In this document: piece by piece, positions 323-59,521 of the stretch
Numbering within the stretch: the first letter of the stretch is position 1
Layout of the letters: the number at the start of each line of letters is the position of its first letter
Source: Candidatus Poribacteria bacterium
Lineage (GTDB): Bacteria > Poribacteria > WGA-4E > JAJDTR01
Assembly (NCBI GenBank): GCA_965222225.1
Contig: CBDCTK010000002.1
Location: forward strand, 4,032,001 to 4,096,000
Length of the DNA: 64,000 nucleotides
Direction of reading: 5' to 3'
Notes under the pieces: generated by a model
Seen by the model: only the letters and a program-made list of their open reading frames with translations
The model's database searches: none
Told to the model about the DNA's origin: nothing
Program-made: the position numbers and the translations under genes

Positions 323-418
323 GTAGGGGCGAGGAGGGGATCTCTATGGGAGTTCTATCGCAGTCATTATTCATTCCTTTGATCCTTCCTTATCCAGTCA
401 GTTGATCCTCGCCCCTAC
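323..418 (+). mobile_element. VB-unit doublet (337-407, inner unit 348-384) inside GTAGGGGCGAGG/CCTCGCCCCTAC REP palindrome
   Basis: gtaggggcgagga [gggatctctat [gggagttctatcgcagtcattattcattcctttgatc] cttccttatccagtcagttgatc] ctcgcccctac. Confidence 0.85.
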
Positions 419-3525: not shown

Positions 3526-3713
3526 GATCAAGCGAGCGATTAGAGAGTGCGGTAGAGATTCTACCAGCCTTTAAATGCCACAGAGTGGGATTAAGTGAGG
3601 AGTAGCAATCAATGAAACGGATAGTGACAGGAATTTCTATGGGAGCCCTATCGCACTGACTATGAGATCTTCTATCGCCTTCGCTATTCACTCAGTTGAT
3701 CGATAGGGATTCC
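3526..3713. mobile_element. VB-unit cluster: decayed unit 3526-3562, plus a minus-strand unit (3607-3713) split by plus-strand units
   Basis: aatcaatgaaacggatagtgac [aggaatttctat gggagccctatcgcactgactat gagatcttctatcgccttcgctattcactcagttgatc] gatagggattcc. Confidence 0.75.
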
Positions 3714-34073: not shown

Positions 34074-34120
34074 AATCAAGGGAACGGATAGTGACCGCGA
34101 TAGAATTCCCATAGAGATCC
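34074..34120 (-). mobile_element. VB unit with an extra head, in a REP pair
   Basis: aatcaa-gg-ga-ac-ggata-gt-ga-cc-gcgatag-aattccc-atag-agatcc. Confidence 0.85.
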
Positions 34121-34230
34121 TCTCCGATTCCCGACATCACGAAGGCATTCCAATTCCCGACGATAGCTCGCGATTCGGAGATCGCTCCTACAAACCATTT
34201 GGTGTTCAACTGCGCAAATCCTAACGTTTA

Positions 34231-43123: not shown

Positions 43124-43252
43124 AACAAGGGAATGGATAATGAGTGATCGCACGACCGAATAGAATCAAACGAGTGGATAGATCAAATGAGCGATTAGCA
43201 AGCTGGATTTACTATGGGAGTTCTATCGCACTCATTATTCATTCGCTTGATC
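43124..43252. mobile_element. Mixed-orientation VB-unit cluster
   Basis: Several ATCAA-VB-GA-VB-GRATA tails, then ggatttactatgggagttctatcgcactcattattcattcgcttgatc (identical to about 21273-21320). Confidence 0.8.
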
Positions 43253-43290: not shown

Positions 43291-43332
43291 CATTACGTAT
43301 TACGTATTACGTATTACGCACTTACGCATTAC
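43291..43332 (+). repeat. Heptamer tandem repeat (TATTACG)n
   Basis: cattacg tattacg tattacg tattacg cacttacg cattac. Confidence 0.8.
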
Positions 43333-44284: not shown

Positions 44285-44427
44285 AATCAAGCGACTGAAT
44301 AAGGATCAGGGGAGTGGAAAGCGAGTGCGATAGAGATCTTAAGGCGATAGTAAATCCCGTGCGATAGAATTCCCATAGAGATCCCCGCGATAGAGATTTT
44401 TCTTGCACCGCCCGCGATAGAACTCCC
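44285..44427 (-). mobile_element. Large VB-unit cluster with at least five heads
   Basis: Repeated gcgatag-NN(N)atcc/tccc heads after aatcaa/gatcag tails. Confidence 0.8.
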
Positions 44428-46699: not shown

Positions 46700-47055
46700 A
46701 TGGCTAAACGAAGGAGATTCACATCCCAATTTAAGGCTGAAGTCGTTATTGAGGTACTTACCGGTCAAAGTTCACAAGCGGAACTTTGTCGGCGGCATAA
46801 CCTCAGCCAAGAGCAATTATCAAAGTGGAAACACCAACTTCTTGACAACGCAGCGACTCTCTTTGAATCCACTGACAAGCAATCCACTGATTATAGAGAA
46901 CGGATTGCTCAACTGGAGCAGCTTGTTGGGATCAAACGAACGATCAACTGAGTGGATAACGAAGGCGATAGCAAATCCCATAGTGAGTGCGATAGGGATC
47001 CCTAGTGAGTTTGGCGTTAGACATCCAAAAAAAAGCCTTGACTTTGCTCAATTGA
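46700..47055 (+). pseudogene. IS3 orfA interrupted by a nested VB insertion
   Basis: Removing 46932-47002 restores ...EQLVGIVSLALDIQKKALTLLN*. Confidence 0.85.
46930..47002 (-). mobile_element. Two-level nested VB insertion (inner unit 46942-46979)
   Basis: Reverse complement: gggatccctatcgcactcactat [gggatttgctatcgccttcgttatccactcagttga] tcgttcgtttgatc. Confidence 0.9.
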
Positions 47056-47891
47056 ATCGGTCTCAAAAGCGACAGATGGTTGAAGCTTTGCACACCGATT
47101 ACCCGGTTCGGCACATTTGTGATGTACTCGGCTTCAATCGGAGTAGTCTCTATTATCAACCGAAGCATGACCCCATTGAACAGGTGCTACGCGATGAGAT
47201 TGAGCAACTGGCAGCCCGTTATCCGAAGTATGGCTATAGACGCATCACTCATCTGCTGTTGCGCATGGGCTACTCGGTCGGTTACACACGCGTCGCCCGA
47301 CTGATGAGAGAAGAGAATCTGTTAGTTGCTGTCAAACGTGCCTGTCAAACCACTCAATCGTTGCGCGGTCATAGTCAATGGGACAATCAGCTTGAGAACC
47401 TTAACATCTGTCGCCGAAATCAGGTTTGGGTCGGTGACATTACTTATGTCCGACTCAAGGGACAATTCATCTATGTTTCGGTGTTAATGGATGTTTTCAG
47501 TCGAGTGGTAAGAGGTTGGCAACTGAGTCAACACTTGACAGAACCGCTCACATTGCAACCGTTGCAAAAGGCATTAAGTCAAGGCAATCCAGAAATTCAT
47601 CATAGTGACCAGGGCGTTCAGTATCCTTCAACAGCCTATATTTCAACTCTGATTGAACATGGAATTGACATTTCCTTAGCCCATAGAGGGCGTCCGTGGG
47701 AGAACGGCTATGCTGAAAGACTTATCCGAACCCTCAAGGAAGAAGAAGTGTATCTCAATGAGTACGATGATATAATGGATGCCAGAGAGCGAATCGGTCA
47801 TTTTATTGTACAAGTTTATAACCGGAAACGACCTCACTCGGCGTTAGGTTATTTGACACCGGTTGAATTTGAGCAACAATACTTGTCTTAA
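47027..47891 (+). CDS. IS3 orfB transposase (reached by -1 frameshift)
   Basis: YGYRRI, WVGDITY, HHSDQG, ENGYAER, YNRKRPHSALGYLTP. Confidence 0.9.
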
Positions 47892-48065
47892 CTTTGCTTA
47901 GTTGTGGTCTAAATTCTCGTTGGCACTTCAAGTTCTTTTGGGTTGACCATTGAAAAAGTCTCCAGCGGTTCCTGATACTATGCAACTTGTCCGGATTGCT
48001 TCCCCTGTGGTAGGCGCTGTTTCTAACTGCGCGTCGCGGGGGGTTGTGTCATCGGTGCGGTTAGA

Positions 48066-48137
48066 GGGATCTCTATCGCGTGGGATCTACTATCGCACTC
48101 CCTATTCGGTCGTTTGATCCTATTCGGTCACTTGATC
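48066..48137 (+). mobile_element. Two-level nested VB insertion in a GGTGCGGTTAGA/CGCACCTAC REP
   Basis: gggatctctatcgcgt [gggatctactatcgcactccctattcggtcgtttgatc] ctattcggtcacttgatc. Confidence 0.88.
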
Positions 48138-48186
48138 GCACCTACCGTTAGTACCTATTTAGGTTTGTGACATCGGCGGAGGTGAA

Positions 48187-48295
48187 GAGATTTCTATCGC
48201 AGTCACTTTGGGATTTACTATCGGGATTAGCTATCGCAGTCATTGTCCATTCCCTTGATCCTTCGCTATCCACTCAGTTGATCGTTCGTTTGATC
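48187..48295 (+). mobile_element. Three-level nested VB insertion in a GGCGGAGG/CCCCGCCTAC REP
   Basis: A 48187-48209, B 48210-48222, complete C 48223-48260, rest of B 48261-48283, rest of A 48284-48295. Confidence 0.88.
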
Positions 48296-48734
48296 CCCGC
48301 CTACGGGTTTGGTGCTTCACGGCTTTCCGTTCAACCCAACGTTGTACGTTTGTACAAAGTCGAGCTAAGTATATCATTGTATACGATTTCCGCCGCACGA
48401 CAATCCACGCGAATCACTGAAACCTTGAAATCGGAGACGACTGCCCTACGAATTGGCGATCGTTCTATTGACGTGACCAACAGTATATCATACAATCACA
48501 TGAAGACGTGAACGTTCCCTCATTCAGATGCGATTCAAGGGGGTGTTTGTTCCGTTTTTGGGTTTTTCTGCACCTGAAAGCAAATCGTGATAATGAAAAG
48601 GTTATTTGCATCTTTTTCGCTGCGTGGTAACGTGTTTGTGCGACTAGCGAAAAGCATTACGATTTTTAGCGGAGCAGTAAAGTGTAGAGCGAGGATCAAA
48701 ATAGAAGCGTACGCGTACGCTGGAGGTTTTCGCC

Positions 48735-50150: not shown

Positions 50151-52142
50151 TTGACCAACGACAACACAACCGATTCTTCTTATGCCCTAGACTCAAATCC
50201 ACTGGCATACACCCCGCCCGACCGGCTAATCCACGATTTCGCCAGCTGGGGGCTGGTCGTGCTGCCGCTGGAAAGTCTCGGGATTCCGCTTGATACCCAC
50301 GACCGCATCTATGAGCTGCAGAAGCGAGCGGTCAAGCCCCCGACACGCGCCACACTTTTCCAAGTTCCCGAAGTACTGGAGATAATCAATGCGCCCGGCG
50401 TCGTCGCGGCCTGCAATCAACTCGTCGGCGAGCGCTGGGTAATTGTTCCGTTTACCGCCGTGCCCATTTCCAGCGGCGCCAGCGATCAACTCTGGCACAA
50501 GGACGACAACAGCCCCGCGAACGGCAGAAAACAGCGTCACCATCACGCTGTGCAAATTGAGTTACTGTATTACCCGCAGGCGGTTCCTGAAGACATGGGC
50601 CCAACGGCGATCGCGCCCTATTCACACTACTGGACGCTTAATCACGAAGACAATCAGGACAATTTTGCCGGGTCGGACCATCTTGATTTTAACTACATGC
50701 TGGAAGCGATGGGAAAGCAACATGTCAGCGGACCCAACTCCGTATACGACGAAGACGACATCATTCACCGTCGCACGGCGCACGACATTCGGATGAGAGA
50801 TGCAGTTACCAACTTGAAGTGGCACCTTGTCCAGCAGTTTGAAGTGGCTCCGCTTCGCGCCGGCACCGTCATTCTGTGCTCTCACAACATCTTCCATCGA
50901 GGCAACCACAGGCGCGACGATTGGCGCACCTGGAACAATCACCCGCGCTTCATGTGGCGATTCTGGCTGTACCGCACCACCGATCCCGACCCTAGTCGTG
51001 AAAACGGCGCGCCGCCCGAGCTTGATTGGAACGGGCTGAGCATAGACCTCCTGACCCGCACCGATCTGACCCAAGCCAGCAACGACCTGACTGTCGTCTG
51101 GCGGCATCACTATCACTGGCTGCACACCGGTCAACCGCCTCCACCGCGAGTGGATGCTGCTGCCTTGGCGGCTGAAAAACGGGAAAAAGAGGCCGCACGA
51201 TTATCCGAGCGGCTTTACGCAAAACACGACCAAGCGGAGCCCGCACGAATCGGCGCGGCGTATAGACTTGCGTCCATTGGTGACAATGAGTTGGCGTTAA
51301 GGCTGCTTGCCGAAGCCTTGTATGACGAGCGGGAGAGCGTGCGGCGAGCCGCTACCTATGGGCCGGTTGCCGTTGGACCGGACGCTACCGGCGTCTTTCT
51401 TGAGGCGGCAACGTCGCCGCTCAAATGGGTTCGGAAGGCGGGAGTGTTTGGTCTGGGCGATGCCAGCCCGCTCAACCATGAGGTTTTGAAAGCCGTTGTA
51501 ACGTGTCTGGAGGACGACCCGTCGGTCTATGTCCGTTCCGTTGCCACTGGGAGTCTGGGGTGTTTGGGGCGTCGCGCCATCGCTACAGGCGTCGGCAAAT
51601 CACTGATTCCCGCCTGCCTTGAGGCGCTAGCGGCGAGCTTGGAGCGTGAGGAGAATCGGCTGTGTATGAGCCTGGCGCAAAATCGGGGCGTCAAATTTGC
51701 ACGCCCGACGGATGAATGCGATGTGTGTGAGGGCAGTCTTATTATACAAGCCGATCGTGAAGGTTTTGAGCCGGTACGCTCGGCAGTCCGTGAAAACGCG
51801 CTATGGTCCGTCGTCATGCTATGCTCACACGGCGCGGCAATTATGGATGATGCACTCGAGCCGACGATACGTGCGCTAAAAACCTTGGTGCAAAACGATC
51901 GGAACGCCATCTGCGTCGGATTCGCTTCCGATGCGTTGACCCGCCTTGCCAATCTGCAGCCGCACGACGAGACAGTCCCGCCGCTTATCCAAGACCTGCG
52001 GGCGCACCTCTTGACGATACTCAAAGCGCCGCCGGTTCAAAGCTGGGACACCCTTGTCCGCGGCGGCCTCAGCCCAAGTGCCTTATCTGAGTTGACGCAG
52101 CGGATTGATATAAAAATAGGACTTACGCAGTTCGGTCTGTAG
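50151..52142 (+). CDS. PhyH-like Fe(II)/2OG dioxygenase fused to HEAT repeats
   Basis: WHKD, MGPT...SH, HRG; VRRAATY, VRKAGVFGLG, VRSVATGSLG HEAT-like repeats. Confidence 0.75.
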   Translation: MTNDNTTDSSYALDSNPLAYTPPDRLIHDFASWGLVVLPLESLGIPLDTHDRIYELQKRAVKPPTRATLFQVPEVLEIINAPGVVAACNQLVGERWVIVPFTAVPISSGASDQLWHKDDNSPANGRKQRHHHAVQIELLYYPQAVPEDMGPTAIAPYSHYWTLNHEDNQDNFAGSDHLDFNYMLEAMGKQHVSGPNSVYDEDDIIHRRTAHDIRMRDAVTNLKWHLVQQFEVAPLRAGTVILCSHNIFHRGNHRRDDWRTWNNHPRFMWRFWLYRTTDPDPSRENGAPPELDWNGLSIDLLTRTDLTQASNDLTVVWRHHYHWLHTGQPPPPRVDAAALAAEKREKEAARLSERLYAKHDQAEPARIGAAYRLASIGDNELALRLLAEALYDERESVRRAATYGPVAVGPDATGVFLEAATSPLKWVRKAGVFGLGDASPLNHEVLKAVVTCLEDDPSVYVRSVATGSLGCLGRRAIATGVGKSLIPACLEALAASLEREENRLCMSLAQNRGVKFARPTDECDVCEGSLIIQADREGFEPVRSAVRENALWSVVMLCSHGAAIMDDALEPTIRALKTLVQNDRNAICVGFASDALTRLANLQPHDETVPPLIQDLRAHLLTILKAPPVQSWDTLVRGGLSPSALSELTQRIDIKIGLTQFGL

Positions 52143-59448: not shown

Positions 59449-59521
59449 GATCGAACGAGTGAATGACGATCAACCGAGTGGACAGCGAGGGCGATAGCAA
59501 ATCCCGTGCGATAGAGATCCC
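59449..59521 (-). mobile_element. Two-level nested VB insertion
   Basis: gatcgaacgagtgaatgac [gatcaa-cc-ga-gt-ggaca-gc-ga-gg-gcgatag-caaatccc] gtgcgatagagatccc. Confidence 0.85.

Follow-up and report, generated by a model that had tools for sequence, protein, structure and literature searches.

The genome of a Candidatus Poribacteria bacterium (5.70 Mb, two contigs, 50% G+C) carries about a thousand copies of a 37/38-nt unit, which we regard, with a probability of roughly 0.6, as a mobile, self-targeting and strand-specific hairpin element of the REP-like or SDR-like kind. The stretch of DNA that was analyzed, hereafter the window, is 64,000 nt long (G000:C2:4032001-4096000), and plain coordinates below refer to it. 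A preliminary description of the window had read its compound repeats as the outcome of repeated insertion of the unit into itself, and this self-targeting nested insertion is supported both by junction statistics and by real before-and-after states of individual loci.

Anatomy, Copy Number and Distribution of the Unit

On the forward strand the unit has the consensus GGGATYT-CTATCGC-NN-TC-NN-TATYC-NN-TC-NN-TTGATC, and its reverse strand, termed here the structure strand, reads GATCAA-NN-GA-NN-GRATA-NN-GA-NN-GCGATAG-ARATCCC. The position matrix distinguishes the 37-nt form, which has the 7-nt head GGGATYT, from a 38-nt variant with an 8-nt head; the unit ends (GGGAT.../...TTGATC) are not inverted repeats and bear no GTAG or CGTC tag, and the flanks are unconserved except for a weak [C/G]C 3' of the unit. 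The core pattern CTATCGC-NN-TC-NN-TNTNC-NN-TC-NN-TTGATC has 1010 matches in the genome versus 0 for the same pattern read backwards, a control that gave 0 matches across 41 genomes. Core copies number 1005 at up to 2 mismatches and 1093 at up to 3, and ~1000 units of 37 nt amount, by simple arithmetic, to about 0.65% of the 5.7-Mb genome. In the window, the head pattern matches 11 times against 1.26 expected (0 of 100 shuffles reach 11), and a search of the same 64 kb against Rfam 15 gave 0 matches at the gathering threshold. Since 242 of the 293 solitary full units are distinct in sequence, the family is old and diverse; the commonest exact sequence occurs in 19 copies, mostly in one host type.

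The unit is abundant in a narrow set of relatives: core matches number 712-1468 in the other species of the genus (9 of 9) and 232-256 in a genus from another family (4 of 4 genomes), compared with 4 in a sister genus and 0-1 in each of the remaining 26 genomes searched in the order. Nested forms are present in loci of G001, G005, and G009. Although 80% of the source genome is coding, only 67 of 866 unit clusters lie inside rough long-ORF calls.

Covarying Hairpin on the Reverse Strand

The four variable dinucleotides of the unit covary as two 2-bp stems around a GA/GA mismatch, the mutual information at the four pairs being 0.80, 0.99, 1.19, and 0.43, as against 0.22 or less for other pairs of variable positions. 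In the 25 copies of the window, 95.8% of cells pair; shuffles give 57.3 ± 3.9%, none of 500 being as high, and slid partners give at most 54%. Double-sided changes occur at all 4 stem pairs. The non-Watson-Crick cases on the forward strand are nearly all A.C or C.A (in 239 of 1005 copies for the outer pair and in 135 for the innermost), and forward-strand G.T accounts for 2% or less in the unit stems. Forward A.C and C.A correspond to G.T or G.U wobbles on the reverse strand, and therefore pairing is selected on the latter. Thermodynamic folding gives the hairpin no support beyond shuffles: when modelled as DNA, either strand reaches about -1 kcal/mol (z > 0), no better than shuffles; as RNA, the reverse strand recovers the covarying hairpin together with an invariant AUC/GAU stem at -3.9 to -4.4 kcal/mol, with a z of only -0.2 to -0.8, and the forward strand folds worse than shuffles. 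The fold of the unit is an irregular hairpin with AA/GC and GA/GA internal mismatches, and this irregular hairpin is probably read by a protein.

Nested Units in the Window

The deepest nest of the window had been described as outer unit A, middle unit B, and innermost unit C in the order A-5', B-5', complete C, B-3', A-3'. The sequence is as transcribed there, and a jump-alignment parse agrees with this order, assigning the following segments:

48187-48209, forward strand: A-5', outer unit, columns 1-23 (head, CTATCGC, AG-TC-AC, TTT), from the parse.
48210-48222, forward strand: B-5', middle unit, columns 1-12/13 (8-nt head plus CTATC), from the parse.
48223-48260, forward strand: C, complete innermost unit of 38 nt with an 8-nt head, from the parse and an excision test.
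48261-48283, forward strand: B-3', middle unit, columns 14/15-37, from the first stem dinucleotide onward, from the parse.
48284-48295, forward strand: A-3', outer unit, columns 25/26-37, with 2 loop nt (YC) lost, from the parse.

As had been claimed, near-complete units reappear on excision: cutting out C rebuilds B minus 2 nt (GC), and cutting out B rebuilds A minus 2 nt (YC). B-3' resumes at 48261 with the GC of CTATCGC lost, and the stems CT/GC..AC/AG fit B as a single unit. The genome has 9 fully closed three-level nests, the locus 48187-48295 (C2:4080187-4080295) among them, and no copy of this locus with A alone or with A and B only was found. Contigs from the population samples X2, X11, and X14 span 48092/48100 to 48258/48289 with 0 differences, and hence the same nest exists in those samples; the four population runs yielded short contigs, mostly repeat unitigs. 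A joint in sample X8 that connects 48223 to 48260 and skips exactly 36 nt of unit C was rejected as an empty state, because its shorter side comprises 22 letters and intact units of the same type occur elsewhere in the genome.

The two-level nests reported at 337-407, 46930-47002, and 48066-48137 parse as claimed; the one at 59449-59521 is indeed two-level but imprecise, with 5 columns missing and 3 stray nt. Nesting in opposite orientation was recovered at 3608-3713, where a reverse outer unit surrounds forward units, and the two clusters said to have surplus heads (34075-34121 and 44286-44398) do hold orphan heads in the parse. The corresponding features are:

337-407, forward strand: two-level nest, with head columns 1-11, a complete unit, and a tail from column 14/15 (parse).
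3608-3713, no strand assigned: reverse outer unit 3608-3627 plus 3701-3713, enclosing forward pieces at 3630-3700 (parse).
34075-34121, reverse strand: complete unit plus an 11-nt orphan head (parse).
44286-44398, reverse strand: cluster with several orphan heads, heads outnumbering tails (parse).
46930-47002, reverse strand: two-level nest in a copy of an IS3-family element, outer unit 46930-46943 plus 46980-47002, inner unit 46944-46979 (36 nt) (parse and paralog).
47934-48369, no strand assigned: 436-nt multi-copy host element bearing both the second nest and the three-level nest (its own paralog and G005 copies).
48066-48137, forward strand: second nest, A columns 1-16 at 48066-48081, complete B at 48082-48119, A columns 20-37 at 48120-48137 (parse).
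59449-59521, reverse strand: imprecise two-level nest in which a complete 38-nt unit separates outer columns 37-22 from 16-1 (parse).

A heptamer tandem repeat (ATTACGT x 5.7) at 43292-43332 adjoins unit fragments at 43126-43252.

Genome-Wide Statistics of Nesting

The jump-alignment parser uses the genome-wide unit profile in both orientations, with jump and entry penalties. It returned 1679 same-orientation clusters with a segment of at least 20 nt, comprising 886 full units and 1031 internal junctions; 174 mixed-orientation clusters are left out of the junction and nest counts, and lone segments shorter than 20 nt are treated as noise. The clusters, and likewise the related genomes, are non-independent samples. 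When each cluster is graded by its deepest fully closed nest, 745 remain plain, 115 reach two levels, and 9 reach three. A full unit stands directly 3' of an interrupted head in 264 of 886 cases, and excision of a complete unit restores a second unit with at most 3 mismatches in 197 of 1005, the excised length being 36 nt in 80, 34 nt in 39, and 35 nt in 24 of these 197. Heads and tails add up to whole units, as insertion of units into units had been expected to produce: 146 of 263 stack-matched pairs lack 0-3 nt, versus 53 ± 5.8 on re-pairing (maximum 75 in 2000). For stems divided between a matched head and tail, compatible pairing holds at 186 of 210 base pairs versus 135.5 ± 4.7, and in the junction parse the inner units are always full length at both ends.

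Interruptions occur mainly at column 11 (after CTAT, 154 cases), column 16 (after GCNN, 116), column 23 (after ..TAT, 57), column 17 (54), and column 12 (38), and the outer unit resumes at column 14/15 (143), column 17 (71), column 25 (57), columns 20/21 (78), and column 28 (28). The suggestion that breakpoints cluster just after TAT or TATC therefore holds for columns 11, 12, and 23, but breaks are equally found after GCNN(T), at columns 16 and 17. The orphan heads left by the stack parse end at column 11 (100), column 16 (81), and column 23 (50), the orphan tails begin at column 14 (126) and column 17 (86), and arrangements of a head plus a full unit or a full unit plus a tail are approximately as frequent as closed nests. 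Inner units had also been expected to lie closer to the consensus than outer ones, which is not so: at conserved columns, inner units show 3.9% mismatches, outer units 4.15%, and solitary units 4.5%.

Before-and-After States and the Order of Events

The window copy of the IS3-family element that contains the nest at 46930-47002 has a paralog at C2:2516727-2518037, 88-93% identical, in which the outer unit is intact and the inner unit is absent; the window copy differs from it by exactly 36 extra nt, located in the loop of the unit. The IS3-family element itself occupies 46700-47891 with two overlapping ORFs and has the unit within its coding region, and its long ORF reads through the repeats because the 36-nt inner insert keeps the frame.

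The 436-nt element has a 98% identical paralog in the same genome (C2:3196873-3197240), in which site 1 (48066-48137) is empty and forms the perfect hairpin GGTGCGGTT-AGAA-AACCGCACC, and site 2 carries the same three-level nest. At least seven copies of this element with varied nest states are present in G005. Site 1 consists of unit A alone in copy L116; in the window and in four G005 copies A is interrupted by B, which replaces TCC; and in L113 the head of A and B are retained and the tail of A is lost. At site 2, the tail of B is lost in L112, the nest is collapsed in L117, and the inner piece in L114 and L115 differs from that of the window. The losses fall between direct repeats (TTGAT..TTGAT and CTATCGC..CTATCGC), and, because tails are lost in this way in sibling copies, orphan heads and tails are explained without a special synthesis mechanism. 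Flank searches across the genome yielded 1081 paralogous flank pairs with differing content, including series with 0, 1, 2, or more units.

Given the IS3 paralog and the states of the 436-nt element, we conclude that the inner unit is the later arrival at these two loci. The more general statement that the innermost unit is the newest thus stands for the IS3 nest and for site 48066-48137; deletions blur the record of events, and no age gradient is seen. Intermediate nesting depths, for which a comparison of related strains had been suggested, exist as stepwise states among the copies of the 436-nt element, but the strictly orthologous locus gave nothing: homology of G005 to the flanking gene region begins only at window position ~48362, and the nest-bearing block is absent there. 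Strict orthology with G005 is uninformative because the nest block belongs to the mobile 436-nt element. In G005, the first ~130 nt of this element are also repeated in tandem, the period being about 231 nt (G005:C1:111557-112751).

Insertion Targets and Replaced Nucleotides

Targets were deduced from 64 filled loci with a single unit and empty paralogs (259 pairs, 174 empty loci). At all 64 listed loci and at the nested sites the unit replaces 2-5 nt and is never a clean addition; target letters are lost, without duplication, in the filled/empty pairs. Where the unit is full (columns 1-37; 49 loci), it has taken the place of GC (10), TGC (10), ATGC (7), CGC (6), TTGC (6), TC (2), CTC (2), CG (2), and four singletons, and 41 of the 49 end in GC. 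A perfect stem of at least 5 bp lies within 5 nt of 56 of the 128 empty sites with at most 6 nt between the flanks, versus 3.2% of 5000 random sites. At least 12 different combinations of replaced segment and host context have empty paralogs.

The hosts are mostly GTAG-tagged hairpins with CCTAC 3' of the unit, for example GGTGCGCAG-TGC-GCACCCTAC, and CCTAC-tagged host hairpins follow many clusters on the 3' side, for instance at 48296-48306 and 48138-48147 of the window. The target sequences in REP loops are GGTGCGCAG-TGC-GCACC and GGGGCAAG-ATGC-CCCC. A further host is the GC-rich REP CACCTGT-CGCCCC-NCT-GGGGCTT, which in the source genome carries the unit at CCTGT^ in 107 cases versus 23 intact ones. 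When the target is another copy of the unit, what is replaced is the YC of its loop, the TC of its internal mismatch, or a GC or CGC where its stem begins. The proposal that the unit contains its own preferred target was borne out, as the junctions fall into few classes with three sharp hot spots that coincide with the unpaired spots of its fold; because these hot spots are unpaired and begin with G on the structure strand, the unit serves as its own target.

Strand Orientation

Unit orientation tracks the local GC skew, with 505 concordant versus 174 discordant clusters (odds ratio 8.5, leaving out 187 clusters with |skew| < 0.01); the associated p-value overstates the effect because the clusters are not independent. 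By GC skew, the wobble-tolerant strand lies opposite the lagging-strand template. No bias relative to the direction of neighboring genes was found with rough long-ORF calls (198 clusters co-oriented versus 224 anti-oriented). On contig C2 (5.6 Mb), the GC skew switches sign many times without forming two replichores, and unit orientation flips along with it, which suggests either many inversions or a skew that is not driven by a single origin and terminus.

Candidate Enzymes and Proposed Mechanism

The genome contains five matches to Y1_Tnp (IS200-like HUH) transposases, and units in inverted orientation lie on both sides of 3 of these 5 loci. The best of them, C2:3080258-3080728, is a 157-aa ORF that scores 83.7 bits with Pfam Y1_Tnp and passes the NCBIfam IS200 model (65.8 bits, cut-off 55) but fails the NCBIfam RAYT model REP_Tyr_transpos (30.6 bits, cut-off 80). 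Its direct flanks are an inverted GC-rich REP, CACCTGTCGCCCC-NCT-GGGGCTT, in three genera, and in the unit-bearing genus the unit is inserted into this REP at CCTGT^CG. The 157-aa Y1 gene (L080/L092) and its orthologs (L093-L101) form a REPtron-like arrangement distinct from the 37-nt unit. Y1 genes occur in all 14 unit-rich genomes and also in 20 of 27 genomes with four or fewer units, a genus whose genomes have 0-1 units carries orthologs of the 157-aa Y1 with 70-77% identity in 7 of 7 cases, and no unit-specific Y1 gene was found among the genomes compared. The sole reverse-transcriptase-like gene (C2:4499563-4501572, L085), a 670-aa ORF, scores 26.8 bits against a Pfam cut-off of 29.6; it has stop codons in several congeners, and the L085 protein used as a query was found in 5 of 9 congeneric genomes and in 1 of 4 genomes of the second unit-bearing genus.

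We propose that the unit moves as a discrete piece and integrates into unpaired spots of DNA hairpins. These are the loops of GTAG-type and GC-rich REP hairpins and three spots of its own fold, which is closed by the invariant ATC/GAT pair set: the loop at the apex, the GA on the 3' side of the internal mismatch, and the GC(G) where the stem begins. With each event, 2-5 target nt are swapped out that begin with G on the structure strand and mostly end with GC on the forward strand. Integration may take place on single-stranded DNA at the replication fork, perhaps catalyzed in trans by a Y1/HUH enzyme. Because every copy offers unpaired spots, copies pile up within copies, to three closed levels. 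Later deletions between conserved motifs of neighboring units strip tails or heads and leave orphans, and part of the spread is hitch-hiking on host repeats, since many copies share host flanks.

Among the possible routes we tentatively favor, at somewhat less than even odds, single-stranded DNA transposition by an IS200/RAYT-like Y1/HUH transposase acting in trans, because the structure is strand-specific, the targets are hairpin loops, the orientation is linked to replication, and there are neither duplications nor inverted ends. Our confidence in this route goes no higher because the event is a small replacement and not a clean insertion and because no unit-specific enzyme was found. We consider it doubtful, if conceivable, that the unit is a hairpin-loop-replacing micro-transposon, in which a 36-38-nt single-stranded DNA piece is spliced into unpaired loops by a host-encoded enzyme and swaps 2-5 nt beginning with G; the enzyme would be a Y1/HUH protein in an unusual two-cut mode or one not yet recognized. 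If true, this integration mode would be distinct from the IS200/IS605 and classical REP models, and the family, with 700-1470 copies in each of ten species and many empty, filled, and nested states, would be the most amenable system to date for learning what moves SDR-like elements.

Alternative Explanations

Copying through RNA would begin with a reverse-strand transcript that folds with G.U pairs allowed and is reverse-transcribed into nicked hairpin loops, so that the junction matching the RNA 3' end would be exact and the other ragged. The wobble pairs on one strand only and the RNA fold of that strand, which recovers the covarying hairpin, are in line with this route, as are the small and variable target losses at one junction, the orphan heads, which correspond to 5'-truncated copies in the RNA sense, and the metatranscriptome runs, which contain 43-59% of the sampled words of the region. 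We nevertheless judge it improbable, given that inner units are full length at both ends without exception, that orientation follows GC skew and not the direction of transcription, and that the only reverse-transcriptase-like gene is sub-threshold and patchy among congeners. About equally small is the chance that the unit is immobile on its own and travels as a passenger of REP-like or MITE-like host repeats, with nests arising by recombination or gene conversion. Most copies do sit in a few recurrent host contexts, such as the 107 REPs filled at CCTGT^ as against 23 intact, the commonest exact unit, with its 19 copies, is largely confined to one host type, and the 436-nt element is multi-copy within and between species together with its whole three-level nest. 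A passenger, however, does not account for the gain of 36 nt within a unit inside an IS3 gene copy, for at least 12 replaced-segment/host contexts with empty paralogs and three sharp hot spots in the unit, for identical units in unrelated flanks, or for L114 and L115, sister copies whose inner unit differs from the one that the window has there.

The preliminary description had itself offered, as an alternative to successive insertion, one burst of iterative synthesis with re-priming. In such a burst a polymerase copying unit templates would abort and restart, or switch templates, and deposit heads, full units, and tails at once. The abundance of orphan heads and tails, and the head-plus-full and full-plus-tail arrangements about as common as closed nests, are what such a burst might leave, yet it fits the remaining data poorly, and we find it the least credible of the explanations considered here. 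Heads differ in their stem dinucleotides from the units that follow them, that is, inner and outer stems differ, whereas matched heads and tails have complementary split stems; a single locus passes through an empty state, A alone, and A with B, and the IS3 paralog presents a similar intermediate; and the surplus heads reflect tail loss, as orphans derive from closed nests in otherwise identical siblings (L112 and L113). Successive insertion of a mobile, self-targeting hairpin element is the reading that we retain.

Comparison with Known Repeat Systems

The closest known parallel, by analogy, is provided by the nested SDR elements of cyanobacteria. The 2008 work of Elhai and colleagues on Nostoc and Anabaena is said to describe SDRs as very short dispersed repeats, reportedly 21-27 nt long, that share a hairpin with compensatory changes. 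They reportedly lie inside other repeats and mini-transposons, two families being nested within their own copies, and their mobility is said to have been judged from presence or absence among relatives, the enzyme being unknown. Both systems thus consist of dispersed repeats of less than 40 nt with a hairpin, compensatory changes, and copies within copies of the same family; the Poribacteria unit comes from a different phylum, is longer (37/38 nt, as against the 21-27 nt reported for the cyanobacterial repeats) and is apparently unrelated in sequence, and a GC-skew orientation bias is shown for it. Precise insertion into HIP1 is described for SDR5 in PMC4390886, whereas our unit targets REP hairpin loops and replaces 2-5 nt.

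With REP, BIME, and REPIN-RAYT systems (Di Nocera et al., 2013, PMC3733652; Bertels and Rainey, 2011, PMC3116915), the unit shares an intergenic imperfect palindrome of 20-40 nt in hundreds to thousands of copies with conserved unpaired bases and compensatory stem changes (PMC3733652), as well as single-stranded DNA as the presumed substrate. A Y1 gene lies between inverted repeats here too, but next to the best Y1 gene these are copies of another REP, into which the unit is inserted. The unit differs in having no GTAG or CGTC tag, GTAG belonging instead to its host hairpins, and the Y1 protein fails the NCBIfam RAYT model. In the passages of PMC3116915 and PMC3733652 that were compared, no REP-like unit inserted into REP loops or into itself was found, and the word 'nested' occurs 0 times.

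In the hairpin-dependent elements IS608 and ISDra2 both ends carry a hairpin, and integration, which uses the lagging-strand template, is clean and lies 3' of a fixed target sequence of 4-5 nt. By GC skew, the wobble-tolerant strand of the unit lies on the opposite side from that expected under the IS608 rule. The unit resembles the IS200/IS605 family and its miniature derivatives (Quentin et al., 2018; PMC6006769) in its hairpin dependence, strand specificity, and link to replication and in the absence of target duplication and terminal inverted repeats, and it differs in possessing a single hairpin and in replacing 2-5 nt. Unlike MITEs of the DDE type, it has neither terminal inverted repeats nor target-site duplications. 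Insertion sequences that target REPs are reportedly known from the 2006 work of Tobes and Pareja; REP hairpins are landing sites in both cases, but those insertion sequences encode a transposase and the unit is a 37-nt non-coding sequence. A literature search that covered PMC4071589 by title and abstract found no description of the 37-nt unit family or of REPs in Poribacteria.

What moves very small bacterial repeats, such as REPs without a dedicated transposase and cyanobacterial SDRs, is still an open question, and clean before-and-after states are scarce. In the present family, sister copies show one and the same position empty, occupied by one unit, nested, or decayed; the family also offers a sharp target rule, strand asymmetry, and ten related genomes with ~1000 copies each, and the mechanism is therefore testable with oligonucleotides and the candidate Y1 enzyme. 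Nests inflate intergenic regions, break short-read assemblies, and, as the IS3 copy shows, may sit in frame within genes; masking them is advisable when Poribacteria genomes are annotated. The proteins of the window are closest to those of Candidatus Poribacteria MAGs, with up to 81% identity for a 663-aa ORF. This ORF, at 50151-52142, has relatives with 46-81% identity in MAGs of Poribacteria, Latescibacterota, Gemmatimonadota, and marine Gammaproteobacteria.
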